A stretch of DNA of 63,821 nucleotides, counting the filler, from Folioceros fuciformis (Eukaryota), in the NCBI GenBank assembly GCA_049999805.1. It is 13 parts of 13 records of this genome, joined end to end, with 100 filler letters (N's around TTAATTAATTAA, not from the genome) between each part and the next. Parts side by side here need not be neighbours in the genome. Positions count along the whole stretch, not along the records: positions 45,988 to 53,554 come from JBNGIO010004963.1; 12 more parts are not named here. One strand, written 5' to 3'. The notes under the pieces were generated by a model. That model worked only from the letters and a program-made list of their open reading frames with translations, searched no databases and had not been told where the DNA came from. The position numbers were made by a program, and so were the translations under genes. Position 1 is the first letter of the stretch. Every line of letters starts with the position of its first letter. Below, one piece after another: positions 21,670 to 63,821 of the stretch.

Positions 21670-21769
21670 NNNNNNNNNNNNNNNNNNNNNNNNNNNNNNN
21701 NNNNNNNNNNNNNTTAATTAATTAANNNNNNNNNNNNNNNNNNNNNNNNNNNNNNNNNNNNNNNNNNNN

Positions 21770-24824: not shown

Positions 24825-24924
24825 NNNNNNNNNNNNNNNNNNNNNNNNNNNNNNNNNNNNNNNNNNNNTTAATTAATTAANNNNNNNNNNNNNNNNNNNN
24901 NNNNNNNNNNNNNNNNNNNNNNNN

Positions 24925-33616: not shown

Positions 33617-33716
33617 NNNNNNNNNNNNNNNNNNNNNNNNNNNNNNNNNNNNNNNNNNNNTTAATTAATTAANNNNNNNNNNNNNNNNNNNNNNNNNNNN
33701 NNNNNNNNNNNNNNNN

Positions 33717-36700
33717 GACAATGCCAACGGGGGGATGGCAGCGAGGATGAGAAAGCGGGACAGCGGGAATCAAGACAGCAGCAGGACTGCGGATTGGGGA
33801 GGAAATCGGGACAGGGCAGGAGGGGAACGAGGCAGGAAATCAGCAGAAAGAAGAAGAAGGCAGGCCTGGCCCTATATCGGCCGAATCCTCCAGCTCCCTC
33901 AACCTCCTCTTGTGCACACATTTAGTCCCATCACCGGCGATCCCTCCTCCTACCTGCAATGTGAATCCAACGAAGCGGGACAAAGAGATGGAGAGGGAGA
34001 AGAAGAAGAAGAGGAGGCAAGAGGAAAATGAAGGAGGAAGGGAGAAAGGGAGGGAGGAATGGGAGCGGCCGCAGCCTGTGGCCCCTGCTCTAGCTAGGGC
34101 ACGGCCTCCATGGCCGTTTAGTCTAGCCAGACCTGACATAGACTCTAACCCTCTAACCCCCGACATACCCCATATTCCCATTCCTAGGTTCAAACCATTA
34201 TTTTATTATTTTATATTACTCTATATTATTTAATCATTTAATATTATATATCTTTAATTAATAATGAACCAAATCACCAAACCTAGACTCAAACTTTCCT
34301 GACCCTATGGTCCGGTACGGACCTAAACTTTCCCAGGTCTGGGACCAAATCTATACCCACTCTTATAACAAAACCAATTATTTCCTGGTCAATTAACCTA
34401 ATTAGCACAAAGAAAAATAAAAAAAAATGATCAGAAAATAAAGGAAAATTAGGGAAAACAAGTAAAAAAAGAAAAACAAACCATATCACTATTAACTCTT
34501 TTTCAACCAAAACAAACCACTACCCCAAACTTTGGAGGTTCACAACTGCCTCTTCTTCATCAGAAAATCCTACCGGCACTTCATGCTAGATTGGCTCAAC
34601 TTCCTCATCTGCGTAGGGTGTAGAGAAGAACTCCTCTTGAGAACACGGGGATGCTATGTGTCTCCCGGGTGGACTGAGACAAATGTTATCAAGGGACTCA
34701 AGGTCATTACTCTCGCCACCCCCATCCCTGGTGTAATCCTTGTCCAACTCCAGGCCCCCATGACAGGTCGCACCGAGGGGGGTTGTCCCCCCGAGATTAC
34801 CTAGGCCTTGTCCCGCAACGTCCACTCTTGCCTCTTCATGCCCTGCCAGTGCCACCCCCTTACCCACTCTGATCTTTTTTCCTTTGGGCGAGGCAGCTGC
34901 CTAAACCCATTGCTGCACTGCTTTGTTAAGGGCCTTCCTCGCCACAGCCAAAGCAATTTGGTCTTGTCGCATAGTTACACCTGGGAGGTTCTCAGATAAA
35001 CGGGAGTGTTTCCCTTTGCCCCTACTGAGAGACGCCCTAGGCCTAGGCGCCTGAACCCGAGCTCCCTCCCATGCGGAGGGCTAGTGTACCCCTTACAGAG
35101 TTTAGACTCAGGATAGCAGGAGTTATCCAGAGGAGGTTTGGAACCACAGCGCTCACTGGGGACCAAAACCAAAGTCCTTTGAGCGTAACTAGCATCGGCA
35201 CTAGCCTCCTCAGGAATCTCGGCATTTAGATTAGCTTGTAGTTGAAGAAACCTGCTTACTTCCATTTCGCCAACACTTTCTGTGTGAACCTCGTGTTGAG
35301 TGGTAGCCATACGTCCAAGCCTCCTACAGCCCACTCTGCCCGCCTAACTTACACCACCGCTGGGTGGATCACATACCTCCCTTAAGACCTTGTCCTCTTG
35401 GGGGGGGGGGTACCAAGGACTTAGCCTGAGTCTGGGAATCTTGTTCCTTAACCGCGTTTGGGGGCTGTCTTCCCTGAGTATCATGTGCCTTATCCGCCTC
35501 TAGGAGCTACCTTTCCCCCACGGGAGCACAACTCACAGAGAGCCCGACACTAGTGATCAGGTGACTGGGGCTACTAATAGTGTGAGTTCTCCTAGCATAT
35601 TCTTGCACCATCCCTTCCACCCCAAACACCCCGTGCACACCCTCTGAGTGGTCCACCGCAGCCTTAGATATACCTTCAGCTTGCCCTTCTCCTCTCCATC
35701 TTTCGGGCCGAATTCCTTCCTTCCCAGGGTCCTACAAATCAGAGCCCAACCCTTTTGGAACCAGTGGGTTCTTGTTGCGAGTTTCAACCTTACTCACATC
35801 CAGCCTGTAGGTTTGATGTAGAGATGTCATGCCAGGACCTTGCATAATCTCACTCTGCCTGACCGCCAAGGCTGGATCTCGAGCATCACCCTGCACACGT
35901 CAACCCTTTGAAGATAAGGTAGCTTCTTCCATACCCCGAGCATCTGCTTGGGCATGAGAGTCTCCGGCATCCAGTTGTGACCCCCCACTATGGCATAGAG
36001 TTGTCCCTTGTGTCTTGCTAGCCTTTTTCAGTAGGCTGGACAAGGCCGCCTCCGCCTCCAATAGATCCCCGGCCGGTCTATCCAGTTGCTGCTCTCCAGC
36101 CAGGTGAGATTGACAGCACCCTCGCCCAGGCAGTTGGTTAGTTTCCTTTATGCTCTCATCCTTGCTGCCCATCGAATTGGTCCCAGACGCTGACTCCTAG
36201 AGATTTGGTGCGTGAAACTTGCTGGAGAAACCTGCACCAACACTTTCCATGCTCCCATGCTCTGCCACCGATTTGGAATTGGTGCAGGATTTGTCAACCT
36301 CGGTATGAGTTCCGCCTCGAGCATAATCGGGTTGGCCTCCCGAATTGCATGGGCAACCAAGGAGCGCGGACCGCCTTCAGCCTTAGAATTCTCCTTGAGC
36401 TTGTGTCTAGCTTCATCAAACCCTCTGGTTTGCCCGGTAAATCCGCCTTCCGGAAGCATAGCATCATCAGCAGGCTTGTAGAAACCTTCCAGCTCCATGA
36501 GCGGGCAATGGCGTCGACCCAATGTTGGCTCTACACCACCGCGCCTTCTGCTGCCCTCAAGGTCAGGGATCTCATCGTGGCTTCCTTCCTTGTGGAGTCC
36601 CCTCCCTGAGGAGGTGTGTGGGGCACCTCCAGTCGTTCCATCCAGCGTTACCTCCGCCTTTCCCTCGGTGAGGCGGTGGGCCGAATCCTTGGCAAAAGTG

Positions 36701-38731
36701 GGAGATTCCTGTTGGGAGGCAAGCTCCCAACGCTCCACCCCATGAGGAGCAAACACGAGACACTCCTGCTCACTCTCCTAATGAAGGCAGGGCCGCTCTT
36801 TACCTTCCTTGCCAGAATATACAAACCAGCGGCTGATTCCATCTACAACTTGTGAAGTCGTCCTGTTTGGATGTTCATGATCCCCTAGCCATCCTGGTAA
36901 GCAGCCAACAATTTCTGTAGTCGCCTCCTCACGTCCAAGAAGAACATCAGCCACAGGGTTGTAAACACCGGAGAGGGCTCTGTCCTACATCGTGCGCAGC
37001 AAGGAATCAACATGCTCCTTGTCCCACCTCGTCCTAGCACCCTTGCGGTGCTTCCCGTTCGGGACATGGCTAGATCTTTCCAAGGCTTCCACCTCCTTGG
37101 CTCCTGCACCTAGCGGTTGTTTATAAGCGAGAAGAGCCCCACGTTGCTTGCAGTTGCTTGGGTCTGTCTCCACCAAGTCGGAGGGCAGGATCTTCACCTG
37201 ATCCTGCTGATCCATGCCACCTTAAGCACGCAAGCACTGTTTAGGCTTTCTGTGACCACTGAGCAGCATCGCAATCCCACCGCCCGAGCTAGTTCCCCCC
37301 TCCGCAGGCCTATGGGGTCCCTTTTGCTTCACGAGTGGGGACAGGGGACGATTCGAGAGCTGCTCCTCTCCTTCCAGCACCTTAACCCATTGTGATTCAC
37401 ACCGCATGTTGCCACCAGACACAAGCACCTCCCCGTTGATTCCCTCCTCGTGTTTTCCCTTCCTTGAAGAGGAGTGAACAGTGCCTCCAGGCACTCCAGC
37501 CAACAGCGAGTCAGTCTCCCCACCAGAGAGGCGGTGCCCTGAATCCCCTCCTCCAGCCTTTGAACTCATCTTGTCTACACCTGCATGCTTCCCTGGCTGT
37601 CCTGACAGGCAGTGAACCAGCACACTAGACACGTCCTCGTGGCAAGGAGAAACACAAGTCTGCAAGGTGACCTCCTTATCACCCAACGTAGAAGACATGC
37701 CCGTCCTGCAATCTAGTCGACCTGAAGCAGATTCACAAGCGCCAGTCATGGCCTTATGGCAGGATGGGGACCGCAGAGCATCCGGCTGGAGAACTTCATG
37801 TGGTTCCTCTACACTCTTGCCACCGTGATCACCTCCCAACGTTCCGTCTCACCAAAGCCATAGGGCAACTCAGTACTGCCGCCGCCCACAGGCATTCCTC
37901 CCCCCGCCAATCCAAGGGATCCCTTCAGGTCCAGGCATGAGGCCTAGATCCAACTCGATCCCGGATTTCCACCGTCTGCTCCACCACCCCGTTGCGAGCG
38001 TCGGCATCTGCTGCCCTCGGATTCAGGAACCTCCACGTGACTTCCTTTCGTGTGTAATCCCCTCCTTAAGGAGGTGTGTGGAGCACCTCCCGGCGTTCCA
38101 ACCCACAGTAAACCAGCCGCTTCACCGGTGGGGCGGTGAACCGAAGCCTTAGCAAAGGAGAAGCTGACCTGTTTGAAGGCAGGCTTCCACTGCTCCACTC
38201 TATTGGAAGCAATCCCAAGGCCATCCTGTTCGCCTTCCAATTGAAAGGCAAACCGCTCCTTACCATCCCCACCAAAATCAGCAGACTAGCTGCTCACACT
38301 AGCACAAGTGTTGGATGTCGTCCTGTTCGGACGATCGTGCTCCTCTGGCCATCTTGACAAGTAGCTAGCATGTTCGGTGTGCTCTTGAAATCTTGTGCTC
38401 CTGATCCCTCTTCGCCCCTACGCCCTTGTATGCCTTTCCGCTCGGAACTTGCCCAGCCCACTCTGAGGCCACCACCACTTTGGCACCTTCACCTGGCCGC
38501 TGGAGTTGTGCGAGAGGTGCCCCGGGTTGCTGGCAATTGCCTGGGTCAGTCGCCTCCAATGTGGGGAGGGGGGGCATCAGCAAACCTGTTGGCCCGCTGC
38601 TTGAATTAGCCATCGCTTGCCTTCCTTTCAACACCTCTCCTAAGTCACCAACGGGGCATGTCAATAGGATCGACTCCAATCTACGTGCAAGTGTAGGAGA
38701 GGAGAGAGGGTGGTATTGGTGATCACAACCA
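33717..38731 (-). mobile_element. Family D element: 3' LTR portion (33717-34544), PPT-like tract, and ~4 kb internal region with a degenerate ORF of unknown type
   Basis: LTR homology to 17216-17707; minus-strand GAAGAAGAGGCAGT abuts TGTGAACC; no gag/pol motifs recognised; internal duplication ~36550-37200 vs ~37990-38580. Confidence 0.55.
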
Positions 38732-40572
38732 TGAAAACAATACACATCACCACTGTCTTACTATGAAGGTCTGAGGTCTCCATTTAAGTAGTACATTTAG
38801 GGCTACACAACTTCCAGGTTCAATATGGGATAATCTACACTATCCTAAGTTCACTAATAACTAGAACTAGTCTAGTATGAACCCAACTGGGATAACTAAC
38901 ACCACATGAGTTTAGCTCATATAGAGCTCGATAACTCAACACTCCCCCTCGAGCTCAACATAACATCTGTACGCCTAACATAGCTCGGAATTTCTTCAGC
39001 TTCTCTGCTCCCATTGGCTTAGTAAATATATCGGCTATCTGCTCGTCTGTGTTGACATACACAAGATCAATAGCTCCAGATAAAATCCTTTCGCGAAGAA
39101 AATGATAATGTATTTCAATGTGTTTTGTCCTGGCATGAAACATTGGGTTTCGCGCCAACTGTATGCTGCTAAGATTGTCACAGTAGATAACAACCTTGTC
39201 GTTGACCTGCAATCCAAGATCTCCGAGTAACTTACAAATCCAAGTCACTTCACACGCTGCCATTGCTGCGCCTCTGTATTCAGCTTCTGTACTAGACAAA
39301 GCCATTGTAGGCTGCTTCTTGCTACTCCATGTAATTGCTGCACTCCCAAGTGAAAAAATGAATCCACTTGTAGATCTACGATCAGTAACACTGCCTGCCC
39401 AATCTGCATCTGTGTACCCACACAGGTTTATTTCTAAATCTGCAACATAAAAGAGAGCATGATCCATAGTTGCCTTCACATAGCGCAACGTTCGCCTTAC
39501 TGCATCCAAATGTGGCTTTCTTGGCGCCTGCATAAACTGACTTTGCAATCCCACTGTATAGTTCAAATCTGGTCGGGATAGAGTGAGATATATCAAGCTA
39601 CCCACAATCTTCCTGTACATTGTTGGATCTTCAAGTGCTTCACCATCATGAGCACTGAGCTTTAGATTTTGATCCAAAGGAATCGAGATTGGCTTGCACT
39701 CAACCATACCATACTTAGTTAGTACATCCGACGCATACTTCCGCTGTGACAGCCAAATGCCTGTGTTGGTTCGTATAATTTCAATGCCCAAAATGAACCT
39801 CAGTTCACCTAGGTCCGCCATCTTGAACTCTTGTTGTAGAAGTTCCTTGATCTGCTCCACTTGATCCAACTGATTACCTCCAATGATTAGATCATCCACA
39901 TAAATGGTCACAAAGACCAGTCGTTTTGTACTTTTGCACACATACAACGAATGATCCGCATCTGCCATGTTGAATCCGATGTGAATCAGATGCTCAGCAA
40001 GACGCTCATGCCAAGCCCTCGGGGCTTGCTTCAGTCCGTACAACGTTTTTTTCAGCTTGCACACATGATTTGGATGATCCGAATCCTCATAACCTGGTGG
40101 CTGGTCCATGTATACTTCTTCCAGCAATTCTCCATGTAAAAACGCATTCTTCACATCCATATGATGTAGGACCCAACCCTTCGATGCCGCTAGTGCGATC
40201 ACGGTTCGAATTGTTGCCATTTTGGCAACTGGACTGAACGTCTCCTCAAAATCTATTCCATATGTCTGGGCATATCCCTTGGCCACAAGCCTTGCCTTGT
40301 ACCTGTTGATACTACCATCTGCGTTGTGTTTGACCTTGTACACCCATTTGCAACCTATTGGTTTCTTGCCTTCAGGTAGTTGTGCTAGGTCCCATGTTGC
40401 ATTTTGATTTAACGCATTCATTTCTTCATCCATAGCATGTTCCCACTTTGTGTCTCCAATAGCTTCTTCAAAGCTTCTTGGTTCCACATCCTGTACAACC
40501 TTTGCCATATAGGCATGGTGCCTAGCTACATAGCTATCATAGGTCAACCGCTGTATTGGAACCTTCTGCCTT
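38732..40572 (-). mobile_element. Copia 3' half: uninterrupted RT-RNase H ORF, PPT, 3' LTR 38732-38941
   Basis: HMDVKNAFLHG, YVDDLII, YTDADWAG, IADIFTK; PPT CTCCCCCTC on +; LTR shares a 30-bp block with the family B LTR. Confidence 0.93.
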
Positions 40573-41092: not shown

Positions 41093-41192
41093 NNNNNNNN
41101 NNNNNNNNNNNNNNNNNNNNNNNNNNNNNNNNNNNNTTAATTAATTAANNNNNNNNNNNNNNNNNNNNNNNNNNNNNNNNNNNNNNNNNNNN

Positions 41193-41758: not shown

Positions 41759-43490
41759 TGGGACCCACAAGCAGTAGACCGTCAGGCGACCATCGCCCGA
41801 AAGCCGACAGAGGTAGCCCGAAAAGCGACGGAGGTAGTCCAGGGGGCGACGGTAGTAGTTCATTGGGGAACGAAGGGTAGCCCGGTAGGCAACCAAGAGT
41901 AGTCCAGGGGGAGGTAGTCCTTGGGGCGACTAGGTGGCTTCCCTCCAGCCTTGACTAGCGTCTACCAGGAGCCTACCACCAACCCGCCTGGCTGCTAATC
42001 CGGCCACCTTTGCTCTCGTGATCCTTGCCTAGCCGGTGCACCAGGAGCAAGGGCCCGTCCTCACCATCTTTTCCCCCAGGAACCCCGACTCGCCCTTCCC
42101 ACGCACAGTCCTAGGCTTCCACACACATCCAGACACCCTAGCCAAGGGGACCTAGACCCGTGGCCTACCGACCACACATCCCACCAAGCCCCTATCGACT
42201 CACCGTTAATCTAACCTCTAATGTAACCTAATCTTCTAACCACTCCTCTACGAATTTCAATCAGAAAACCAAAAAAAACAAACTCTGCCATTTCCTAGGG
42301 GATCTACTCGTCATGTGGACTCCACAGAAAGTCAGTTTAGGTGCAATAGTTGTATCGGCTACTTGTAGTAGCTGAAAGCACTACCGCGGTAGCTATGACT
42401 ACTACTCCAGCAGTTGTAACCACTAAGCAGCCTTACCCACTGTATGGGGAAAGGAAGGGTTATGAGGATCCTAATGACTTTGTTGAGCATTTTGAGCAGC
42501 TGACCATTGCCAACCAAGAGGTAGGAGATGCGCAACGTGTTCCGCTGTTCTACGGAGTCTTGCGTGGAGCTGCAGCCAAGTGGTACAAGCGGGAGTACCT
42601 CAAGTCGTCCACACCTCCAACCACCTTCCAAGCATTGAAGAGAAATTTCTGTGAGAGGTTTTGAGGAGTGGATGTTGAGGGATACGTCTTGTCCAAGCTC
42701 GAGGGGCTACGAAGGAAGCAAAAGGAGACGTTGCAGGCCTATGTGGAAAGATTCCATAGCTTGTGGGACCATGCTGGCCCCCATTCGGAGCGCATGGCGA
42801 TACGCTGGTTTGCTAGGGGCCTAGGCACAACGCTGGGGAAGCACGTACGACTCCGAGCTGAGAGGAATTTGGACCAAGCAATTAGGGCTGCCATGCAGGA
42901 ACTACAAAGAGTCCAATGCGAATGAGGGGAAGAAATCAAGGAAGGATGAGAGGAAGGGCTGGGGAGACAAGAAGAAATCCAAGAAGCCCACGAAGAAGTA
43001 CTCCTCGTCCTCGGATGATGATTCAACGGAGGAAGAAAGCTCTTCCCGGGAGTCCTCGGACAGCTCCATAGAGGAAGAAACCAGCGACAACTCGGAGGGA
43101 GATTCGTCGAGTGATGAGCGCAGTCGGAGGAAGAAAAAGAAGAAATCAAGAATCGAAGCGGAGTGGAAGCACCGCACCCGAAGGAAGGAGCTGGTGAAGG
43201 AAAAACAGGAGGTCGCAAGCATAAGGAAGGACGCTGAACACGTGAGGAGCGAAGTGGAGAAGGCGGCCAAGATGGAAGCGAGAATGGAGAAGATGATGGT
43301 TGAACTGGAGGAGATGATAGTGCAATTGCTGGACTATGAAGAAGGGGAGGAAGAAATGTACCTGGCTGACTGTGGGGGAAAATATTGCACCCGAGGCTGC
43401 TACAAGGTCCACACAAACCCTCTTTGTCGTTATAGCATTGGGATTCGATCCCAAGGGAATGATTTGTGTTAAGTAACACAGGTTTTCTCA
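41193..43490 (+). mobile_element. Gypsy-type LTR/leader (GA microsatellite, ~21-bp GGTAG repeats), family G insert (~41935-42326) and decayed gag (42350-43470)
   Basis: Retrotransposon gag motifs EDPNDFVEHFEQL...LRGAAAKWY...FCERF, RRKQKETLQAYVERF, WFARGL. Confidence 0.75.
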
Positions 43491-44349
43491 CAAGGTCAGT
43501 CTACTGCTCACCTGCCACCTATTCGGCTACCTCAACCTTACTACGACTTGACTACCACCGTCGCCCCTCCAACTACCTTAACCCTGGGTTACCTGATGGC
43601 TTACTCGGCTACCGGGGTTTATGCCACTCCAACTACCAACTTCCGGCTACTTCGTTACCTCTACGGCTACTGCAACACTCAACTACTCCCGTTGCTCTTC
43701 CACGACGGTCGCCCAACCAGCTACCCCGGTGGGGTCCACTCTCTCTCTCTCTTTGCTCCCTCTTTCCCTCTCTCTTCACTCTCTCTCTCTCTCTACAATT
43801 TACTCCGTGACTTACTTTTCCGGCTTATGCCTCCTGACAGGCGTGACACACTGCGACCTTCTCTCTCTCTTGCACGCGGTTGCTCCTCCCCCTACGTCCT
43901 TCCATCCACTCACGATTACTCACCGCCTCCTCCAAGACTCGAAGGTGCTTACTTCACGCACACATACACACCAACTCGCTGGCTGCGTTGGCCCCTAGCT
44001 CCTCCCGTTTTCCTCAGGACCCCTTTTTCTACGCGCGTCGGCGTATTCACACACACACACACACACACATCCACGGTTTCTCAATCAGTCCGCACACCCT
44101 CACTCACTGCCATACTCCGCTCACAACCTCAAGCCAAACTCCCACGACCACTCATGCGGCCCTGCACTTCAGTCACACATGCATATCGACTTCTCTTCCG
44201 TTCGCAGCATTCCGTCACAATATATAGTCGCGTCTCATTCTCGTCACCCCCTTACCCCATTCACTCTCTTGTCGGCCACGAACCCCTCCCCGCAGTGCAA
44301 CATACTCACCGTCCCGGTTTTACAATCCCTCAGCTCAACTTTCGTCACA
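43490..44349 (-). mobile_element. Inverted relative of the 41.2-41.9 kb LTR/leader
   Basis: CTACC repeats and CT/CA microsatellites mirror 41400-41930; ends GTCACA (TGTGAC on -). Confidence 0.55.
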
Positions 44350-45878
44350 TGTGGAGGCAAAACCCCGGGCACTGATTGCCAACGGGTTCCACCTTTAGTG
44401 GCCACACTTATCCCACTGTCGTTGAGACATTGGGTTTCGTTCCCACGAAGGAGCGATGGGGTTCCTTGCTGCTGTGGATGGAGGGTCGGACTTATGATGG
44501 ATTCGAGGGCTCCCCTCCAGCTCCGATCAGGCGTAGAACAGGCCTCGCTGTTCAGCAGTCAGCTGCACCTCTCTCAGTGCCCACAAACTCACTCCAGTCA
44601 CTACAACGACTCTAACCTCTTAGATCTGCGACTTCCCTCACACACTTCACTCACTCTCTCACTCCAACACCAACACCAGCAACTAACAATGATACCACTA
44701 CCTTCTACACTTCCCTACTGACTCCTCCTACCCGGCAAGAGTCACTAGACTAACCCCAAACAAAAGGAAGAAGGGAACACACTCCCCTCTTGGATATCTC
44801 CTCCCTACAACCTTACCAGACGCCATGAAACATGGCCGGCCTACAACACTTGTCCGAGCAAGGAACAGGAGTGGACAGGTCGAGAGAAAGACACATCCTT
44901 TACAATCAAGAGCTAGGGGCAAGCCCCTTCACCCTGGTCGTTACACCTTGTGATCCTACCAGACACTGTACGCCGGCAACACGCTACCTGCGATCCTACT
45001 AGACATTGTACAGCCGGCAACACGCGGCTTGTGATCCTACCAGATGTTGCACAGCCGGCAACACACTGCAGGTCCTAAACCAAGCAGGGACAGACCACAA
45101 GAGCCCATGAAGAGAGGACCTCCAAGAGCTCACAAAGAGATAGACTGACTCCCAAAAGTGAATGACTCCCTCCTCCTACAGGCTCACCTGATCTTATAGG
45201 AGCCTCTCTCTCTCTCTCTGACTTCACCTCTCTCTAACTTGAGAAATATTATTTTAATAGCCTAGCCGGCTGTTACCAGCCACTTATTTAGACTTCTAGC
45301 ACAACCTGCCACCAATGAGCTGGCCCTACCACCACAAGGATCTACCACCTCTTAGACTATCCTTAGACTTCAAAGGATGTCTGATCTTCAAAGATCTGCG
45401 GACGCCGCCTCTTCCATGCTGGATGGTCACCCTCTAAGTCTTCCCCTGCAACTGTTCACCCTTGGTGGCTGAGCTAGTCTCTAGGGGAGGAGCATGAGCA
45501 ATGGGAAAGATAGAGAAGAGGTGGGAAGGAGTGGGATCAGCAGTCGGAACCTGGCCTGAAAACGGTAGCTTATTCAGCGGGATCAGCTTCCAGCCGAAAT
45601 GGTTCCTCAGCCATGGAAGACTGACCTTGGGGTGCTAGGGAAGGCCTTGAACTAAGAGGAAAAGAAAGCAGGTGAAACAGAGTTGAATTGGAATTTCTGG
45701 AATTAAATCCAGAAAAATAGGGATGAAAATAGAAAAGGGGAAATTAGGAAAATAAAAATAAAAGAAATACGGGGATACGTATATGGTATACGTATTAATA
45801 CGTATCTAAATCATATAAAATACAAAAAAGGGGGGTATATGTATACGGACCGTATACGGTCTCTAAAAAAACCCTACA
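44350..45878. mobile_element. Long (~1.5 kb) LTR, family C, with internal ~41-bp x3 repeat (~44947-45066)
   Basis: TGTGG...CCCTACA termini; duplicate of 40573-41092. Confidence 0.7.
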
Positions 45879-45987
45879 TGGAGGCAANNNNNNNNNNNNN
45901 NNNNNNNNNNNNNNNNNNNNNNNNNNNNNNNTTAATTAATTAANNNNNNNNNNNNNNNNNNNNNNNNNNNNNNNNNNNNNNNNNNNN

Positions 45988-46626: not shown

Positions 46627-49031
46627 GATGTTATAGTTGATGGTGGTTTGTCTACTAACCTAATCAATATAGGGTGGCTTGAGGATCTTGGTTTGGCCTC
46701 TGTAAAGAGGCTAGCTTGCAATCAGGTCTTCAAAGACGCATCCAACACAAGGTTGCCTGTGGTAGGGATTGTTGAGGGCATTAAAGTGGCAGTAGAAGGT
46801 ATAAAGGTATACATGGGATTTACAATTGTGGAATTACTAGAACCAGCATACGGGGTCATCTTGGGTCAGCCCTAGCTTGAATTGGTGAAGCCTAATCATC
46901 ACTAGAACACAAGGGTTTTGGAAACCAGGCCAACCACCCATTGTGTCCAGATCAAAGCATGGCAGCCAGAGGAATTCAACATGTCTAGCAACAATTCAGA
47001 TTAAAGTTCAGAGACTTTTGTATATGAAGAGAGTGGATTAGACCAGGAGGTGGACTTCACTAGTGAACACTTCAACAGCGAGTGAGAGATGTTGCACATT
47101 TTGTCCATACGCATGGCTCAAGATAAGCTCAAACCTGCTTTCAGCGTCAAGCATCCACAGTTGAAGGACTTGAACTTTCATGCTGCTAACAATATTGGAA
47201 AAGTGGTTAACGTGGGTGTAGGAGTTAAGGGTGAAGAGATGGAGAAATATCAAGCCCTTTTCACCAAGTTTGAACATCTATTTATCACTGGCCACCAGGA
47301 GATGCCACAAACTTGACCAAGTTTAAGACTGACATTCTTGCTGATACCAAGCCCAAGATAAAAAAAATTTGTCAACTCTCATGATCACCCAAGCACATGA
47401 ATGAGGTACGACAGGAAGTCATGAGGTTAAAAGTTGTAGGTTGTATTGGGAAAGTTCAGTATCCGATCATGATACTGAACTTTCCCAATACAACCTAGTT
47501 GCTGCCTGGTGTGCAAGTAAATGTCATAAAAACTTCTTCCATGACGTTTTTGTTTTATGTCACAAATATGTTTACATTTACACAAAGCAAAAGCATCATA
47601 AGAACTCTAAAAACCACATTCCCCCATCGTATGTTGTGGCATACATAGGGGCTAAAAGTAGTAGTGTGAATGGGTGTCTCCAATAGTGATGTCAATGACG
47701 AAGAATGGCAAAATTCGTACATGTGTTTACTTTAGGGAGCTTAACAAAGCCACCAAGAAGGATAAGTTCCTTTTACCACATGTGGATGAAATATTGGATG
47801 AGGTATGAGGCTATGAGATGTATTCCTTCTGTGATGGGTATTCAAGTTTCCATCAAGTTGCGATCTCGGAGGAAGATTAGCTAGAAACAACATTCGTAAA
47901 GCCGTACGGTGTTTTCATGTCTAAGATGATGCCTAAGATCAGTCGCAAACAACATTCGTATTTCCGCGGGGTGTTTTCATGTCTAAGGTGATGCCTAAGA
48001 TCAGTCGGAAACAACATTCGTATTTCCGTGGGGTGTTTTCATGTCTAAGGTGATGCCTTTTGGTCTTTGTAATGCACCTTCTTGTTTCCCACGGGTCATG
48101 GTTGAAGTATTGGGAACTACAATAGGGAGATTTCTTAGAGTTTTCCTCGCTGACTTCGTAGTCTTTGGAAATAGGATTGAACATCCCAAGCTCTTAGAGG
48201 AGGTGTTCTTGAGACTCACAATGTCAACATAGGTCCCAACCCAAAGAAGTGTGTCTTTGTTGAAATTGAAGGAGAGCTTCTTCACTTCATGGTAAATTTA
48301 GAGGGTGTCCATGCGGAACCTAAGAAGGTATAGAAATTCCTAGCTAGACCCACCTCCGCAACTGTGGAGGAGGTCAGGTCATTTGTATAGGCAGCAAGTT
48401 TTTATAAGAGGTTGCTTCTTGTCTTCACTAAAATTGCAACACCATTGTACAAGTTGATTAGGAAAGATACAGGCCTTTTAGAATGGAGTGGAACATGCAT
48501 ATAGACAACTCAAAGACTTGATGACATAAGCTCAAGTCATGAGACTGCCAAACTAGGACAAGACTTTCTTCATCAGTATTGAGGTGACTAAGACCTCGCT
48601 TGAGTACAATCTGTTTTAGAAGGATGATGAGACAAAGTTGTACTTCCTAATCTACTTTGTAGGAATGCTCATGACTAGTTGTGAGTCAAGGTATAATTTT
48701 GTGGAGAAGGTTATAGTAGGGATGGTTACAATTGTAAAAAAGTTCCATCATTACATAGCCTCTAGGAAGTTCGCTTTCTTCGTTACCTTCCATCATTAAA
48801 TAGCCTCTAGGAAGTTCGTTTTCTTCGTTACCTTGCACGCTACAAGGTATTTGATGATGATACCAAACCCATTTGGACGTTTTGCTAAATGGCTATGTGT
48901 TCTTTTTGGATATGATTTTGATGTGCAAGTAAAGACATTGAAATTTCGGAAATTTGAGGCATGCTTGTGTGGCTATCATTGTGAGGAGGTTGCAATGATA
49001 CTAAACCTTCTGACATAGAACACAAAAAGAA
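46627..49031 (+). mobile_element. Heavily decayed Ty3/gypsy pol (protease-RT-RNase H)
   Basis: VIVDGGLSTNLI...YGVILGQP; EWVSPIV; RELNKATKKDKF; MPFGLCNAPSCF; RFAKWL. Many stops. Confidence 0.88.
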
Positions 49032-52000
49032 TGTTGTATATCAAAAAGTAAAAGTGTTTAATAAACAATAGTCTTAAGTAAACCCTAGGTTAAACTAACT
49101 AGCCTAACCTGTGAGATTAACTAACCAAGGGTTAACCAAACCCTAACACCCCCTCTTAACCGAACAAGTTAAAGACGGGAGGAGTTATTGAGCACACACG
49201 CGGAGGTTGCGTTCGGCGCTTTAGCTTCTCAGGCAGGACACGAGGAGACTATGAAACATGGGGATATCTATCCCCCTCGCGCTGGTCACTCTCAGCATCA
49301 CAGGTGTTTTTGGAGTTGCGCTGCTACTACCATGGCTCAGTCGATCAATGGAGCCCTCAGCAACCAGAGAAGACCAAGAGAAGAGTCTGTGCAAAGAAGT
49401 ACCATCACCGACGAGGAGAAGTTGAGGAGGGACTGTTGGCCATCGCAGGCGGATAGAGCCCTAATCAAGCACCTCCTTCGGACCGAGAAACCATGCAAGA
49501 AGCTGGAGGAAATGCTGAAGTCTACCAAGGCCAAAACTCTAGAAGTGCAGAACTTGGTTGCATCTACTCCAGCCAGAGACACACGCTCGCCCTCACTATT
49601 AGATGCTGAGATCAGAGTCCTCGTTAGCGAGCTGAGGAGGCTCGGCTATGGCGGCCAAGTCAACGAGGGAGAGGCACATAGTCAGCTCCGCGTTGTGGAG
49701 AGGTAGGTCTGCTAAAGACACCCCACGTCTAAGTTGTTGTCGATAAGCTTCATTCACTGAACTGTCTTCAAGCTAACACGCTGTTGTACACCTGTAGGGA
49801 AGAACACAGCACAGAGACAGTGAACACAACTGCAGCTTCGAAGTACTAACCTTGTGCTATCCTTAGACTACAGTAAGCAGGCTTCTAGGATCTGGTAGGA
49901 GTAGGTAAGACAAACTCCCTTAGCCCCAAGGCTGCTAAGTGTTTAAAGTGTTTCTGTCTGGACAGACGTTTAGTAAACAGATCAGCTGTATTCTCGTCTG
50001 TGCTAACATACTACACCTTCACAAGTCCTCGTTCAGCCACATCCCTAATGTAATGGTGGTACAACTCAATGTGTTTGGTACGGGCATGGAAACGGGGGTT
50101 GGAAACCAAGGCAATGGTAGACATGTTTTCACAAAACAAATCAGTTGGTCCAGGTTGAGGTAAGTGAAGAGACTCAAGAAACTGACGCTCCCACTCTATT
50201 TCCTTATAGGCCTTCATTAAGGCCTTGTACTCAGCCTCTATGGACGAAAGGGCTAAGGACGTTTGCTTTTTGCAGGACCAGTTGACAGAACCTGAGGCGA
50301 GTAGGCATGCATAAGCGGACAAGCTCTTACGAGAATCTGCATCCAAGGCCCAGTCTGTGTTGGCAAAGGAAGTAAGTAAAAATTCTCTCCTACCACTGCT
50401 TGTGTAATGTAACCCATTACTCAAAGTTCCACGCAGGTAACGATACACATGGTTAACTGCTACCCAATGGGATCTGCCAGGATTCTTTAGGAACTGAGAG
50501 ACCATACTCAAAGAATAGCTGATGTCAAGCCTTGTCCAGTTAGCAAGAAAAATTAGGCAACCCACAGCTTCAGCATAAGGCACTCCAAGCATATCCGACT
50601 CCTCCTTAGCAGTTTGAGGGGACTGCTGAAAAAGTCAGCTTTTCCCCCATTGTTGAAGGTGTGGCAACTGGATGAGCCTCATGTAAAGTTGAATCGTTTT
50701 AGAATTTCCTTTAAATACTTAGTCTGGTGCAGAATGACTGTTCCTTGAGATCTATCTATGAGAATCTAGATACCCAAACAATATTGCAATGGCCCTTGAT
50801 CAGTCATTTTGAATTCTAACCTAAGCTAGTCCTTGATCTTGTTGAGTTGTGAGGTGCTATTGCTCAGGAGGATTGCATCATCAACATAGAGGGCAAGCAC
50901 CACAAATAGTCCAGCATCAGCAAGATAAAAGACATTAGAGTCAGCCGAGGACTGAACAAAGCCAAACTTGCGCAGAAACTTCATTATGCGTTTATACCAG
51001 GCTCGAGGTGATTGTTTAAGTCTATATAGTGTTTTTAGTAGTTTGCACACTTTATGAGGCCATTGTTTACTAACGAACCCCTTTGGCTAGTGCATGTAGA
51101 GCTCTTCCTCAAGCTCACCATGAAGAAACGCGGTGCACACATCCATCTGATGCAACTCAAGATCAAACTCAACTGCCATAGCTAGCAGGATCCTTACTAA
51201 GGGGGACTTCACAACTGGCGAGAAAGTATCTCCATAGTCAATTCCAGGAATCTGGCTAAAACCCCTCGCAACCAACCTGGACTTATATCTTGAGATGGTG
51301 CCATTAGCATTCAATTTGGTTTTGAAAACCCATTTACACGAGATAGGCTTGCGGCCAGGTGGTAAGTCAACTAACTCCCAAGTGTTGTTCTTCATTAGGG
51401 AGTTGAACTCATCATCAATGGAGACACGCCAATGCTTGCTGTCAGGACCATTAAGCGCTTCTTCATAGCTCTGTGGATCAGGCCTAACCTCAGGTACGTG
51501 CACATCTGTAACATGAGCAGATTGTCTTCTAAAATCAATGGACTGATACTATGTCTCAACCCAATTTTCACGTGCTCTGCATTCTCTCGTAGGGTAGCGA
51601 GATAAAGGGGGCTCCTCGACAGCATTCTGATCTAGAGAAGCATCATCTCCTGCATCTGAAGTAACACCATCCACAGCAAGTTCGTCTGAAACATGTGAGT
51701 TAATCGACTGGATAGACTGATCATCTCCTTCATCCTGAACTATTGCATAATCTGGATGGGCTGCATCATTCTGAACTGCCTCATTATCCTCATCTTGAAC
51801 AGGGTCTAACTCTGCTACTACCGAAGCATCAAGCTGTTCCTCACCGTCATACTCAAGGTAGTTGTGAAACACTTGTGTTGGTTCTAAGCTTAAACCAGAA
51901 AGCACAACATCACTAATACTAATAGGATCTACTGGATAGAGCTGCTCTACAGAGGAATCTGAACGAGGAGAGGTGAATTCAGTGATGGTAGCACTTCTGG

Positions 52001-53554
52001 ATAAGGTAATCCTTGACGTCATAGGATCTAGACGTTTATAAGCCTTAGACTCTTCAGAAAAAAACCTACAAAAAGAAGAGGCTTAGACCTATCATCTAAC
52101 TTCTTTCTTTTATGTTCAGGAACAAGAGCAAAGGAAGGTGAACCAAAGACTTTTAAGTGGAGAAGACTAGGTTTTCTTCCCCAAAATGCCTCATATGGAG
52201 TTCTACCTAGAAGAGCTGACGTGACCACCTTATTTAAGATGTAAGTGGCACACACAACTGCTTTTGCCCATAAAGACTTGGGGAGAGTAGACCATGACAA
52301 CATGCTCCTTACCATGCCCATTAGAGTATGATTTTTACGCTCTGCAACTCCATTCTGTTGCTGCGTGTAAGGGACTGAAAGTTGCCTAACTATGCCATGT
52401 GCAATAAAGAGATCATCAAACTGTCTGCCAGTAAACTCCCCTATGTTATCAGTACGAAAGCACTTCACTAGTTGACCAGTCTGTCGTTGCACCATCTGTA
52501 TCCAAGTGGAGATAGTCTCGAACACATCGCTCTTCAACTTGAGGGAGAAGGTCCATGTGTACCGAGAGTAGTCGTCCGTCAAGGTAAGATAGTACTCCGC
52601 TCCTCCAAGCGACTTCACAGGCAGCTTTCCAGCAATGTCAACATGTATAAGCTCCAGAACTTGCTTTGCTCGAGTTGCTTGTTTGTTCTTAAAGGGCAAT
52701 TCTTTTTGCTTGGACAGGATACAAGAGCTGCAAGGTTTAAGATGCTTGAAACAAGGAGGTAATCGCTCATGGTAGCAAGAAGAGTTAGCTATCAAATCAA
52801 GTTTAGAACGATTAACATGGCCCAACCTAGCATGCCACATATTAGCTTGAACATGAAAAGCAGTAAGCAAAGCTCTGACCTTTGACTTATGTACTGTGAC
52901 AAGTTGGTAGAGATCATCTACTAGAACTGCTCTAGCAACATGAATCTTTGGATATGTGAGATGATAGACATAGCAGGGTTTGTCTTCAAACCTAAACCCA
53001 TACTTACGACTGCAAGCTATGGCCCTAATCGACAGAAGGTTTTTACTAATGTCTGGAACAAACAACACATCCTCCAGCAACAAGGAAGACCCATCAAGAA
53101 GTGGTATGTTCACAGAGCCAAACCCCTTGACCTGAACACCTCGTGAGTCACCCACAAATATTGACTATGGTCATGTCTGCTTGTGAAAGGTCGAGAAGAG
53201 CCCACGTTTGTTGCAGATGTGCGTCGTGGCTCCTAAGTCGACAAACCATTATGAGGAATTCCATTTGGAAAGTGTCAGGCAAACTATTAGGGTTGTAGCT
53301 AAACTGCCACTCTTCTGCTGTGAGCTGTGATTAGAACCAGCAAACTTCTTCTCTTTAGAAGTGGTATGAGCCTCCTACTTGACTTCATGTTTAGGTTCAC
53401 CAGCCTTCTTTTTGCGGCAGTCACGTTCCCGGTGCCCTAGGATCTGGCACCAATTACAGTTGCCTTGTCTTTTTGTCAAAGAGGATGGAGATGAGGTAAA
53501 ATCATTGGATTGCTTCTTGCCTCCTTTATTATCTTTCCCCTTCCAAGGTCCTTT
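49032..53554 (-). mobile_element. Decayed copia: gag knuckle-PR-INT-RT-RNase H, extended 3' region with antisense ORFs, PPT, 117-bp 3' LTR (49032-49148)
   Basis: CNWCQILGHRERDC, LELIHVDIAG, FRTDNIGEF, QMDVCTAFLHG, YVDDAIL, NPRFHARTKHIE; TGTT...AACA LTR and CCCCCTCTT PPT on +. Confidence 0.93.
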
Positions 53555-54129
53555 NNNNNNNNNNNNNNNNNNNNNNNNNNNNNNNNNNNNNNNNNNNNTT
53601 AATTAATTAANNNNNNNNNNNNNNNNNNNNNNNNNNNNNNNNNNNNNNNNNNNNGGTGTTTTCCATCGGAAGGTCTCCGATGTTGTGCGAGGACCTCACC
53701 TTAGGAGTGCCAAGCCCTTGGCTATACCACACATTGTGAATGCTGGTTGGGACTGAAATCATGGACGGGGAGGCCACGACTCCTGAGTCTGCTTACGAGG
53801 AGGTGCTCACTGGAGGGCGGGCTGCGAGTGTTGTGGTGGAAGCGGCGGAAAAGTACTCTCAGCTGAGCATTCAGGTGTGTTGCTTAGGGGCTTTGATATG
53901 TTATGGATGCGTGGATCTTGAAGTCCTCTTTAAGATGCTTATCCAGGTTCCGAATCCAGACCATCTTTCGTTATGACCCAAGTATGCTTGTGCTTTGCAG
54001 GCAGACAGAAAACAAGGACCTAACTAAGATACCTCTAGTCGGCGGAAGGCAGATGCGGAAGAAGTTGTGGCGTGTTCGTCAGAGACATTGAGAGACGGTG
54101 GGGTGAGCACAACCAAAACGAGGCTCCGT

Positions 54130-54760
54130 ACGGGCCTTTGCTGCCTTTGCACTGGCAGACTGGTGATGAAGTGGTGAGCTTCGTCTAGGCGACCTGACTG
54201 GCCTAACATGTCGGTCATGCATAAATAGTGGTCCATGTCAGCAGCCACACCGTATTGCTCATACATGGCCTGGAAGAGGCGGGTTTCTTCCTCTAACAGG
54301 CCACTGTGACTGCAGGCAGACAGTAAACAGACGGCAGACAGTAAACAGACGAATGTGACCTTGTTGGGATGTACGCCCTCCCTACGCATTTGATAGAAGA
54401 GCTGAAGGGCCATCTAACCATCTCCATACTGGGCATATCCACCCATCATCGCATTCCAAGACACCAGATCCTTCTCTGCCAGTCCTTGGAACACGGTTCT
54501 TGCATCTTCCAAACTCCCACATTTTCCATACATGTCAGTCAGAGTGTTGCCCACATACACATCTGTGTCAAGGCCAGTCTCCACTGCGGGACTGACGTTC
54601 ACTTCTGATGATAACGGAGTGAACTCGTCTGCCCACATCCAAATCTTTCTTTGCAATGCACCTTTGCAGGAGACTGTACAGGATGTTTGTCGAGAGACGA
54701 ATGCCTTGCTGTTGCAAAGCTTCCACAGCCTGGATTCCATGTTCGAGCTGCAGCCAATCC
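54130..54760 (-). pseudogene. PLS-class pentatricopeptide repeat gene relic
   Basis: VGNTLTDMYGKCGSLEDARTVF...DLVSWNAMMGGYAQYG*MALQLF...TFVCLLSAVCLLSACSHSGL...HYLCMTDMLGQSGRLDEA. It has a frameshift, an in-frame stop, an 18-bp duplication and a truncated E domain. Confidence 0.88.
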
Positions 54761-55389
54761 TGGTCCCTTGTGTGCAACTTTCTAAGTCCACAACTGTCAT
54801 CCCGTCCCAATCTGCAACATTGCATGAAGAAGGTGGGGCCCTGGTCAGTAACTGAGCACACAGGAAGATGCACATCCAGGAATGTACTTGCCTCAAACCA
54901 ATTGCTCCTTGGGAAACTCCTGATGCTGCCGTTTGCTGACCTCTAACTGCTTTCTGCCATTCCATAGCCACCCCTTTGCTCTGTGTTGCAAAAGGTTGAA
55001 GAGTTCTGATGCTGCCTGTCAGTGACGTATCCGCAAGGTCAATTCTTCGAATACAGCTCCTATTGCACGTAAAAAGAGGAAGAGGCAAATGTACAGCTTG
55101 CACAGTTTTGCATAACCAAGGACCAGGGAAGGAAGTATTACCATATAGCTCCCGCAGACATCGCCTGCCTAGACTTGCGTCCGGCAGGTTCCGGAGCTGT
55201 TTCGCTGCAGCTCATGGTTGCTCTGATGGCATCCCACGTCCTGGTGGCAGGGATCGTTCAAACAGCCTTCTTGGCTGCAAGTTTTAGGGNNNNNNNNNNN
55301 NNNNNNNNNNNNNNNNNNNNNNNNNNNNNNNNNTTAATTAATTAANNNNNNNNNNNNNNNNNNNNNNNNNNNNNNNNNNNNNNNNNNNN

Positions 55390-58034: not shown

Positions 58035-58134
58035 NNNNNNNNNNNNNNNNNNNNNNNNNNNNNNNNNNNNNNNNNNNNTTAATTAATTAANNNNNNNNNN
58101 NNNNNNNNNNNNNNNNNNNNNNNNNNNNNNNNNN

Positions 58135-59280
58135 AAAACCATAGATGCTTACCTCAAGTCCATTGGTTTCTTGCAGAATCCAGGTGATGCAAATGTTTAC
58201 CTCTACTCCAAAGATGGCCGTATAGTGGTGCTTGCCCTTTACGTTGACGATGCAATTTTAGCATCCAATGATCCTGCATTACTAAGCTGGGTTAAACAGA
58301 TGCTTCATCAAAAGTTTGACATGAAGGATATAGGGCCTCTGACCTTTGTACTTGGCATACAGTTGGTTCGAGACCTTTCTTCCCATACTATTGTTCTACT
58401 CTAGGCTAAGTATATTATGGAGACTCTTCAGCGTTTTCATCTTGCGTCTGCCAAGCCTGTTTCTACCCCTGGTGTGGCTAGTGCTAAGCTGTCATCTGCA
58501 CATTGCCCACAAACTGTTTCTGAGAAAGAGGCTATGGCCAATATTCCTTACCGTCATGTTGTTGGGTGCCTCAACTATATCAGTTGCTGGACTCACCCTG
58601 ACATTCAATTTTCAATGAGTGCTGTTTCTCAGTTTCTGGATAACCCCGGCAAGGAACATTGGGGCGCGGTTAAACGTATTCTTCGGTATCTGAAGGGTAC
58701 TCTGCATCATGGGCTATGCTTCCGGGGGCGAGCAAATGACAAGCTTACCGTTTCTAGATGGGCTGATGCCAACTGGGTCACAGATCCAGATGCACGACGA
58801 AGCATATCCGCATATTGCTTTACCCTTTCTAGTGCTGCAATTCATTGGAGTTCCAAGAAGCAGGTTTCCATGGCACTCTCCTCTACCGAGGCAGAGTATA
58901 AGGCCTTGACGGAAGCCTCCAAGGAAGCTATCTGGGAGCGTTCCTTTCTGAATGGTCTTGGGTTTCCGCAGTTCCAGCCAACGCCCATTTATTGTGACAA
59001 TATGTCGACAATTGCCATGACAGCTAATCCGTGATTTCACGCCCGCACTAAGCACATTGAGGTGCATCACCATTTTATTAGATACTCTGTGGAGCAGAAA
59101 GAAGTGCGAATTCAGCATGTGACTACAGATTTGAACGCAGCTGATCTCCTCACCAAGTACCTGCCTGCTCACAAGCACCTGATACATATGGAGGCTTTGG
59201 GCATCAAGCCCTATACTCAAACCTAGTTCTTCTGGTTACCTCAGCTGCAGGCATGGTGGATGAAACTTTTCCTTCAAATT
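58135..59280 (+). mobile_element. Copia RT-RNase H fragment
   Basis: YVDDAIL, WADANWV, YCDNMSTIA, AADLLTK. Confidence 0.92.
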
Positions 59281-59766
59281 AGTTGGAAGACTACATGCGG
59301 AAGCGTGTCTTCCATACAAAAGATAAAATTAAGAATAATACAAAATACAAATAGTTGTCCTTTTATAGGTATCACCCTAAAGGGTGTGACTTTTCACTAG
59401 CCTAGCAAATTAACATAACTCTTGGTTGGCTAAACTAGCATGACTTATGGTTACTTAACTCTAGTGGACTGGTACCCCTTCTAACTCTCCCTCTCAGTCA
59501 CGTAGAGGTTATGAGAGCTCTATTAGAGGTCAGTGCTTCGAAAGTTTGTAGCAAAGAGCTATCTACTTCAGCTCGGCTATCAAATCTTCCAGTCGCTGAC
59601 ACTGTCAAGAAGTCTGTCGCTGGCGACAACCTCCATAGTAGCGCACTGGTCATGACCAGAACAACAGTAATACTCCAGTTACAGCTACCCTTGCACTAGA
59701 TGGAGCAAGAAGGAATATCATTACCACGTCTTCAAGTTTTCTTGAGTAACATAACCACTACAATCT
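59281..59766 (-). mobile_element. 3' LTR (59281-59486) with AG...CT termini, PPT and 3' region
   Basis: Minus strand reads TGAGAGGGAG|AGTTAGAAG...CCTATAAAAGG...CTTCCAACT. Confidence 0.65.
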
Positions 59767-59866
59767 NNNNNNNNNNNNNNNNNNNNNNNNNNNNNNNNNN
59801 NNNNNNNNNNTTAATTAATTAANNNNNNNNNNNNNNNNNNNNNNNNNNNNNNNNNNNNNNNNNNNN

Positions 59867-62463: not shown

Positions 62464-62563
62464 NNNNNNNNNNNNNNNNNNNNNNNNNNNNNNNNNNNNN
62501 NNNNNNNTTAATTAATTAANNNNNNNNNNNNNNNNNNNNNNNNNNNNNNNNNNNNNNNNNNNN

Positions 62564-63821
62564 TCAATTTTATGTGACAACATGTCTGCACTTGCCCTTG
62601 TTGCCAACCCTAGGTTCCACGCACGTACTAAGCACATTGAAATACAGCACCACTACATCAGAGATGTTGTGGGGCGTGGTGCTGTCAAGGTTGGCTACAT
62701 AAGCACAGAGGACAATGTGGCAGATGTGTTAACAAAGGGCTTGGTGAAGCATAAGCACTACAAGCATATGTCAGGCTTAGGCCTGGACGACTACTCAAGG
62801 TATTTGGGTGCGGAGTGACGTATCTGTGGATGGTGGGGCGGGAACCCGAAGGTTCCCTAGGTGATGATGGGTTGTGTCTGCAAGCTTCTTCGCCGACATA
62901 GATAACTGCACTCGGCCACACACCCACAACTAGGTCAGCTACCGCACGCTAGCCCTTGAGGAGACAGAGGGAGTACATATCACTTTGTTGCAAGAAGGAT
63001 GAAGCTCACCTTAATACACAATCTTCTTGTAGTACAGTGCCCTCTACAGAGACGGTTTCACATCCTCCTCACCGTCGTCAGGGTTTGGTCCCTTTCCAGC
63101 TGCAATGATGTCCTCCAGCTTCTTGATCCTGTCAGTTGCCCGCCGAAGGCTGGTGATCAAGGCAGGCAGACCCAGCTCAGAGTAACGGAAGTCCGGTAGC
63201 CAGGGATCACGTCCTTGCCCGAGTACCAGTCACTGGTACTCGAGTATCGCTCTGTCCCTGGGAGAGGCCCTGGATCGGCTGCAACGCTGCTCATCAGCTG
63301 CGAGAGTTCCTCCGGCGAAGTGCATCTAACCTATGGCAGAGGCTCCCGAGGTTCTTCCGTAGCTGGTGCTGGTCTGGGTTGCCTTCTGCACCTCTGGGTC
63401 TTTGGCGGGGTGGTACAGATCTTTCCACTGCGCGTCGGCATCTCTTTGAGGCGATGGCGAGCGTGACAACTGAGCTGGATCGCGACAAGGAAACTGAGTG
63501 CGATGGTGGCGGCTGCTAAACCCAGCGTAAGAAGGATGGCCATTCCTGAGCGCTGGGGTTTAGGCGTAACCGTGCAGCATCGTAATCGTGACTCCGTTGC
63601 AGAGCGAAGGACCCCGTTCCGTGATAATGGTGAAGAGGGGACTTATCTATATGACCGTTTTTCTAGACCTAGTGTTGCTTGAGAGGGAGTGTTGAGAGTA
63701 AAAGCCAACACATAGTCTAAGTAACGTTAGGGTTAGCAGACTAGCCCAAATGAAACGTCATTCGGGTTTAGTATAAAAACAACACACGATGTCAATTCTA
63801 AAACTCACTTTCTTTATTTTT
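62564..63821 (+). mobile_element. Copia 3' end: RNase H end (to 62818), ~0.86-kb 3' region with antisense ORFs, PPT 63681-63689, 3' LTR from 63690
   Basis: NPRFHARTKHIEIQHHYIRD...VADVLTKGL; GAGAGGGAG|TGTTGAGAG. Confidence 0.9.

Follow-up and report, generated by a model that had tools for sequence, protein, structure and literature searches.

Two overlapping antisense reading frames in the long spacer between pol and the polypurine tract of a Ty1/copia element of Folioceros fuciformis: a candidate decayed accessory module

Does the stretch of DNA between pol and the 3' end of a Ty1/copia retrotransposon hold genes that are read against the direction of the element? The question is raised by a locus of Folioceros fuciformis (assembly GCA_049999805.1) lying in a stretch of 63,821 nucleotides (nt) that was analysed as a whole and is called the window here. 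In this window an element designated E1, on contig JBNGIO010004963.1 (45988-53554), has two overlapping open reading frames (ORFs) on the strand opposite to pol, between the end of pol and the polypurine tract (PPT) at the inner edge of the 3' long terminal repeat (LTR). Antisense extra genes behind pol are recognised but unexplained in some plant Ty3/gypsy elements, and the extra ORFs of copia elements are, in the portions of the literature available to this study, described only as sense and env-like. Our analysis suggests, with about an even chance of being right, that the ORFs of the E1 spacer are a decayed, lineage-specific antisense accessory module common to a small copia clade with long spacers between pol and the PPT. 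The original prediction had proposed a conserved antisense accessory module at this locus. A layout common to two element tails beyond chance was found, but the similarity between the two was not significant at standard gap penalties or by BLAST. Judged from sequence comparison, the statistical signs of a shared layout of the two tails are regarded as real and their conservation in translation as weak.

E1 is a Ty1/copia element on the minus strand, and its integrase precedes a reverse transcriptase (RT) of the RVT_2 type. Pfam matches to Pol_BBD, gag_pre-integrs, rve and SH3_retrovirus occupy 52031-53164 (minus strand) and the match to RVT_2 occupies 51090-51548 (minus strand). Ribonuclease H (RNase H) homology was identified by sequence similarity at 49888-50247 (minus strand), and the pol stop codon is present at 49885-49887 on the same strand. 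These parts make up a broken pol with integrase, SH3, RT and RNase H (49885-53164, minus strand), which is disrupted by at least two frame changes and by in-frame stops at 50011-50013 and 51549-51551. The gag gene and the 5' LTR are beyond the contig, whose end at 53554 falls inside the integrase.

The PPT of E1, AAGAGGGGG (49149-49157, minus strand), was read in the sequence and identified with a regular-expression scan. On the minus strand, from 49157 to 49141, this purine run is directly followed by TGTTAGGG, which opens with TGTTAG, placing the junction between PPT and LTR at 49148/49149. The start of the 3' LTR was annotated at 49032-49148 (minus strand) on the basis of this succession of purine run and TGTT, and the far end of the LTR is probably truncated. 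The same junction motif also occurs in element C and copy 2 of the window, both described below, and in the metagenome locus L001. Just outside the truncated LTR, three tandem copies of a 62-nt unit that are 81-84% alike were observed at 47873-48058 and 48041-48232 (plus strand); this repeat is at single-copy depth in the DNA runs and adjoins a short plus-strand ORF with an RT motif of the Ty3/gypsy type.

With the pol stop at 49885-49887 and the PPT at 49149-49157, the antisense cassette lies within a pol-PPT spacer (49158-49884, minus strand; about 735 nt with the PPT included). Two DNA runs of one sample cover the E1 stretch and were aligned to it at 80% likeness, with 40 of the 543 variant places listed. 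The number of contig variants in these runs is about eight at 49116 versus two to five at places in the spacer, and the summed contig depth rises from about 60 to 240-290 below 49168, with single-copy depth only below about 48955. This jump in variants and depth fits an LTR start at 49148, and the spacer of about 735 nt is therefore taken to be real. An assignment of the spacer to a long LTR was considered and rejected, since the contig variants roughly double at and below 49149 and the PPT/TGTT motif stands at the junction.

The longer of the two antisense ORFs has 151 codons from its ATG (49251-49706, plus strand) and encodes a charged product that is predicted to be helical and has no known domain. 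An open second frame ending at 49706 had been pointed out earlier; it is present and contains this complete ORF, the frame being open for 177 codons from stop to stop (49173-49706). The shorter ORF, with 55 codons (49258-49425, plus strand), is in the +1 frame relative to the longer one, and its ATG is 7 nt downstream of that of the longer ORF. Both ATGs have A at position -3 and the ATG of the shorter ORF also has G at +4. At its N-terminus the shorter product has a hydrophobic segment of about 25 residues with a hydropathy of 2.23. The coordinates and the peptide of this ORF, its antisense orientation, its hydrophobic N-terminus and its place between the PPT and the pol end, as given in the original prediction, were all verified in the sequence. 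In the sense direction the longest frame of the spacer has 102 codons from stop to stop and 26 from ATG.

Comparison with shuffled sequences revealed that these features are uncommon by chance. An open frame of at least 177 codons in any of the six frames occurred in 5 of 2000 dinucleotide-preserving shuffles of the E1 spacer. Among the 207 ATG ORFs of at least 50 residues in the window, only two reach a Kyte-Doolittle mean of at least 2.0 over 19 residues within their first 40: the 55-codon ORF of E1 and an ORF at 63331-63543 in a second element, copy 2. Both are antisense and near a PPT. Antisense ATG ORFs of at least 50 residues with a hydropathy of at least 2.2 in the first 40 residues were found in 2 of 3000 shuffles of the E1 spacer and in none of 3000 shuffles of the copy 2 spacer, and a six-frame scan of the window found only 20 such hydrophobic segments; the hydropathy thresholds behind these counts were fixed post hoc, and the hydrophobic segments lie in stretches with 57-65% pyrimidine (C+T).

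Analysis of the other copia ends revealed that the length of the spacer is itself a distinguishing feature. The PPT/TGTT junction is 866 nt past pol in copy 2, and 17 to about 150 nt past pol in the other copia ends compared. The GGGGGAG/TGTT form of the junction is 17 to about 25 nt past pol in element C and in locus L001, and in element F the junction is about 150 nt past pol. L001 is one of three loci recovered when metagenomes were scanned by pol (33-38% identity), and its spacer is of the ordinary short kind. Long spacers of 0.7-0.9 kb are thus special to E1 and copy 2 among the copia ends compared.

Some further observations were made on these copia ends. Antisense hydrophobic stretches of element F (59236-59766) were dropped as candidates because the PPT-like junction about 150 nt past pol places them inside the LTR. 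Elements A (from 12766 downwards) and H2 (from 19637 downwards), both on the minus strand, are 84% identical over the first roughly 240 nt past pol and hence belong to one family. In element A a possible junction of the PPT/TGTT kind follows pol at a distance of about 606 nt, so that this element may have a long spacer too. Downstream of element C, four open frames of 113-209 codons occur on the sense strand of that element (36151-38757, minus strand); these score mildly positive in codon usage and are without a Pfam match. The four frames are in or beyond the LTR of element C, since its junction is only 17 nt past pol.

Copy 2 is on a contig of its own (62564-63821) that starts inside RNase H at 62564. 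Its RNase H and the C-terminal end of pol occupy 62564-62818 (plus strand), its PPT is at 63681-63689 (plus strand), and its 3' LTR begins with TGTTGAGAG at 63690 (plus strand) and runs to 63821, from where it continues off the window. The pol end of copy 2 is the closest relative of that of E1 in the window, with 61.8% identity over 76 residues; other pairs have 36-57%. The contig at 59867-62463 also ends with a pol C-terminus (to 62427), which is 57.5% identical to the one at 62564-62815, and at this identity the two represent separate elements rather than a single one interrupted by a gap.

In the spacer of copy 2, the hydrophobic-start ORF has 70 codons (63331-63543, minus strand), a hydropathy of 2.38 and G at both -3 and +4 of its ATG. 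A counterpart of the long frame of E1 was found at 63047-63580 (minus strand) in decayed form, with stops beginning at 63562, 63328 and 63232 and the final stop at 63044-63046. Relative to the long frame, both elements have their hydrophobic ORF in the +1 frame. A recurrence of the whole architecture at 63044-63543 had been predicted: the hydrophobic-start ORF of 70 codons is indeed there, but the second frame is interrupted by stops and the longest ORF is no longer than expected by chance.

The two tails were also compared in translation by Smith-Waterman alignment (BLOSUM62, gap penalties -8/-0.5), three parameter sets and 18 frame pairs having been tried. A colinear alignment of the 151-codon ORF and the matching antisense frame of copy 2 has a score of 87.5, a value reached in none of 1500 whole-sequence shuffles; allowing for the three parameter sets and the 18 frame pairs, the corrected significance is about 0.05. 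In three sets of 1000 shuffles that keep the local composition the score was met by 3, 0 and 1, and reversed sequences gave 50.5. The remaining frame pairs of E1 and copy 2, 8 antisense and 9 sense, gave no significant score. Likewise, of 35 frames drawn from five other copia tails and from the other frames of copy 2, 34 were not significantly similar to the 151-codon ORF. The remaining one, antisense frame 1 of element A, is taken up below. A codon-position identity computed on the protein-guided alignment of E1 and copy 2 was discarded as evidence because an alignment of this kind is inherently biased towards positions 1 and 2.

The alternative that survives best is that no protein is made from the spacer at all. 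In that case the spacer would be a non-coding 3' untranslated region (UTR) of a copia clade with one or more conserved cis elements, serving for example in RNA packaging, dimerisation, polyadenylation control or antisense non-coding transcription, and the frames would be by-products of composition or chance. We consider this a serious possibility, though one with clearly less than an even chance. The results gathered in this and the next paragraph weigh against the accessory module, and many of them speak directly for a non-coding spacer. Although a frame of the length seen in E1 is rare among shuffles, at least 13 other unannotated open frames of at least 170 codons occur in the window, and for this reason the length of the long frame alone is not decisive. 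The long frame of copy 2 is broken by in-frame stops, and the longest ORF of its spacer is at chance level (635 of 2000 shuffles). Both copies sit in dead elements. Homologues of the long product were absent from every search. In a phmmer search with the 151-residue product against 1.84 billion representatives, only two matches were obtained, both to repetitive unrelated proteins, and a word-index search with the same product gave none. No Pfam family, TRP28 included, matched the products of 151, 177, 55 and 70 residues at E values up to 0.1. For the 151-residue product the best E value in the PDB was 0.95, there was no usable match in the ESM Atlas, and there was no match in metagenome, prokaryote-genome or viral contigs.

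Codon usage and structure prediction point in the same direction. A codon-usage log-odds model trained on 3802 copia gag/pol codons of the window scored the long ORF at about 0 and the short ORFs at -0.14 and -0.15, values that are neutral to negative, with held-out pieces of E1 pol at +0.065 to +0.19; a model trained on pol would be expected to rate a hydrophobic peptide poorly. A single-sequence AlphaFold2 model of the long product is helical but has a mean predicted local distance difference test (pLDDT) value of only 39.7. The coiled coil that had been proposed for this product is for that reason not established. The pyrimidine-rich composition of the DNA under the hydrophobic segments also favours a by-product of composition. 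The significance of the similarity between E1 and copy 2 depends on permissive gap penalties picked post hoc: no significant similarity between the copies was obtained with standard gaps (-11/-1), tblastn or tblastx (E values of 0.6-4.3, or 10 of 200 shuffles). In addition, the frame of the unrelated element A mentioned above reached a z of 3.3 against the 151-codon ORF. This similarity was judged to be noise, the alignment being full of stops and the sequence AT-rich. Inside the 151-codon ORF, a block of about 80 nt is conserved between the two tails at the nucleotide level (49458-49535, plus strand, versus 63084-63163, minus strand). Its local nucleotide alignment score of 21 was met by 0-2 of 300 shuffles, and its 18-nt core has 94% identity. 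The mismatches in this block by codon position number 7, 4 and 4, with no excess at third positions, a pattern as compatible with a cis-acting RNA or DNA element as with coding.

Other genomic copies in the DNA runs give a mixed picture. Several copies of 49079-49661, diverged by 10-17%, are present. Among the four long diverged pieces listed from run X1, three span at least 300 nt of the ORF without an insertion or deletion (indel), which counts in favour of the module. Against it, one X1 copy has a 4-nt deletion at 49352, and another copy cannot be aligned over 49662-49733, a segment that covers the end of the 151-codon ORF. Two substitutions in the non-bisulfite runs, A>G at 49541 and C>T at 49655, are at third positions and synonymous in the 151-codon frame, again in favour of the module; these are both of the ORF substitutions among the 40 of 543 variant places listed. 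The pol pieces of the same contigs also have indels, and the copies are therefore decaying, with differences that reflect mostly neutral decay after insertion. Among the runs recorded as RNA, no match to 48900-50700 was listed, and run X4, presumed to be RNA, gave a single 44-nt match, in pol only. In run X3, on 48600-50700, nearly all differences are C>T (117 places) and G>A (73). It looks like a bisulfite-type library of the same sample and could give the methylation state of E1.

Set against a purely non-coding spacer are four observations. A frame as long as that of E1 was obtained in only the 5 of 2000 shuffles reported above. The two ORFs of the window with the most hydrophobic starts occupy corresponding positions, on the same strand, in two related tails. 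The similarity in translation between the tails is confined to one frame pair, and plain nucleotide homology should show in the two other registers as well. Finally, the relative frame of the two ORFs is conserved. If the frames are non-coding nonetheless, the finding reduces to an ordinary long 3' UTR with one conserved element of 80 nt.

On the reading that we favour, a decayed antisense accessory module, E1 is a dead Ty1/copia element and the region forms the 3' tail of its internal part; the small clade of E1, with two members in the window, would have acquired a spacer of 0.7-0.9 kb. The module would have combined a long gene, of about 150-170 codons, whose product would be charged and probably helical, with a short gene for a single-pass hydrophobic peptide, which lies in the +1 frame over the first third of the long one. 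In E1 both frames are open though pol is broken, and in copy 2 the short frame is open and the long frame has stops. An antisense transcript could have begun within or close to the inner margin of the 3' LTR and extended in the direction of pol, and the two ATGs, with a spacing of 7 nt and a purine at -3 in both cases, may both have been used through leaky scanning. A plant virus in which AUGs spaced by 7 nt initiate two frames provides a precedent. The products might have served as a regulator or as copy-number control in the element's own cycle, a suggestion modelled on the antisense extra ORFs known from Ty3/gypsy elements. Roles in membrane targeting, movement or anti-silencing, which were also put forward, are speculation. 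The most specific version of this reading, a compact dual-coding antisense module of a copia clade in which one mRNA started in the 3' LTR encodes a single-pass membrane peptide and a helical charged protein, we regard as unlikely. If it were true, no membrane-directed and overlapping pair of antisense accessory genes would have been described for copia before, and the arrangement would recall the tightly packed accessory genes of complex retroviruses.

Antisense ORFs between pol and the 3' LTR, termed aORF-3R, are reported for maize Grande (gene23), rice RIRE2, Silene Retand, bean pvRetro13 and Botrytis Boty in the sections available of the source (PMC7264820). According to the same sections, the products mostly have no database homologues, apart from TRP28 or SMC in some, and are of unknown function (PMC7264820). 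A regulatory role, with an internal or LTR antisense promoter, has been proposed for them in the accessible parts of three papers (PMC7264820, PMC11963269, PMC4093653). The ORFs of E1 are similar to aORF-3R in lying between pol and the PPT/3' LTR, in being opposite to gag-pol and in having no database homologues. They differ in their host, which is Ty1/copia, whereas all examples described in the portions seen of these sources are hosted by Ty3/gypsy elements of the Tat/Retand type. The corresponding region of Retand measures 2.9-6.6 kb, and a TRP28 domain is encoded by 97% of the clusters, as far as the available text goes (PMC11963269). Unlike this Retand region, in the size range given there, the spacers of E1 and copy 2 measure 0.7-0.9 kb, and unlike Retand with TRP28 (PF04195, Transposase_28), E1 and copy 2 encode products for which the Pfam search at E values up to 0.1 gave no match.

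In common bean, all 15 of the 15 families with an antisense ORF2 are Ty3/gypsy, and an extra ORF was found in 2 of 65 copia families, sense and env-like in both, according to the portion seen of the report (PMC4093653). The extra ORFs of bean have about 200-900 residues in that portion, unlike the ORFs of E1 with their 151 and 55 codons and their overlap. Env-like ORFs of the SIRE type, in soybean SIRE1, tomato ToRTL1 and bean pvRetro3/4, share with E1 a position as an extra copia ORF between pol and the 3' LTR and a hydrophobic or transmembrane segment (PMC7264820, PMC4093653, each as partly available). In these same excerpts the env-like ORFs are sense and several hundred residues long, whereas the ORFs of E1 are antisense and short, and no similarity between them was found. 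An antisense extra ORF in a copia element was not found in the parts of the literature searched, a search that did not cover supplements or the Neumann 2019 REXdb survey, either of which may hold cases. The antisense gene of the deltaretroviruses is comparable in being on the opposite strand between pol/env and the 3' LTR, and in human T-cell leukaemia virus (HTLV) the antisense promoter is in the 3' LTR, as stated in the accessible text (PMC7264820). It differs in belonging to an animal virus and in encoding a bZIP product; E1 has no sequence relation to it, and antisense transcription of E1 is putative. The antisense gene of HTLV is named HBZ.

A further alternative is that the spacer is foreign DNA taken up once by a common ancestor, either a transduced host gene fragment or a reverse-inserted fragment of another mobile element, so that the ORFs would be decaying remains of this cargo and of no use to the element. 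The capture of genes into the region between pol and the 3' LTR is discussed as an origin of extra ORFs in the portion available of one paper (PMC7264820), and the spacer is absent from the other copia ends compared. Despite this, no host or mobile-element protein resembling the long product was found among the 1.84 billion representatives or in Pfam, and the spacer has no match elsewhere in the window. Moreover, the layout was kept while pol diverged to about 62%, and a useless cargo would be expected to have been lost or scrambled in that time. We therefore consider this origin improbable. It is very improbable that -1 ribosomal frameshifting or splicing links the hydrophobic start to the long frame in a single membrane-anchored helical product, since, although the same -1 shift from the hydrophobic to the long frame would be needed in both elements, neither a canonical slippery heptamer nor a GT..AG pair of suitable length was seen in the overlap (by eye rather than by a systematic scan), and in E1 the long frame is provided, upstream of the overlap, with an ATG of its own in good context.

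If the favoured reading of a decayed antisense module is true, such modules arose more than once, and the spacer of E1 offers a small system, of about 0.5 kb, for testing what antisense accessory genes do for a retrotransposon.

The remaining features concern the make-up of the window. Twelve identical linkers, each consisting of 44 N, TTAATTAATTAA and 44 N, stand between its separate contigs, at 17116-17215, 18630-18729, 21670-21769, 24825-24924, 33617-33716, 41093-41192, 45888-45987, 53555-53654, 55290-55389, 58035-58134, 59767-59866 and 62464-62563. The contigs are only joined by these linkers; hence neighbourhood across a linker is artificial and no feature can be read across one. In a repeat search the linkers score as repeat families. 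Pfam matches also identified pieces of host genes, namely IFT140 (TPR and beta-propeller domains), Gcd10p and PPR repeats; these pieces lie at 3055-7874 (minus strand), 9119-9508 (plus strand) and 54027-55211 (minus strand). Judged by these Pfam matches alone, the combination of flagellar and PPR proteins points to a probable flagellate streptophyte or alga. A cluster of long open frames of up to 300 codons, in several frames and on both strands, occupies 42742-44718. Their translations are of low complexity and rich in Pro, Ser, Thr and His, have no Pfam match and mostly have strongly negative codon scores, and the frames look like simple-sequence DNA rather than genes. Finally, the segments at 17592-17679 and 34429-34516 (both minus strand), each a few hundred bases past a linker, form a near-identical pair with the same hydrophobic segments in the six-frame translation; the pair is a dispersed repeat.

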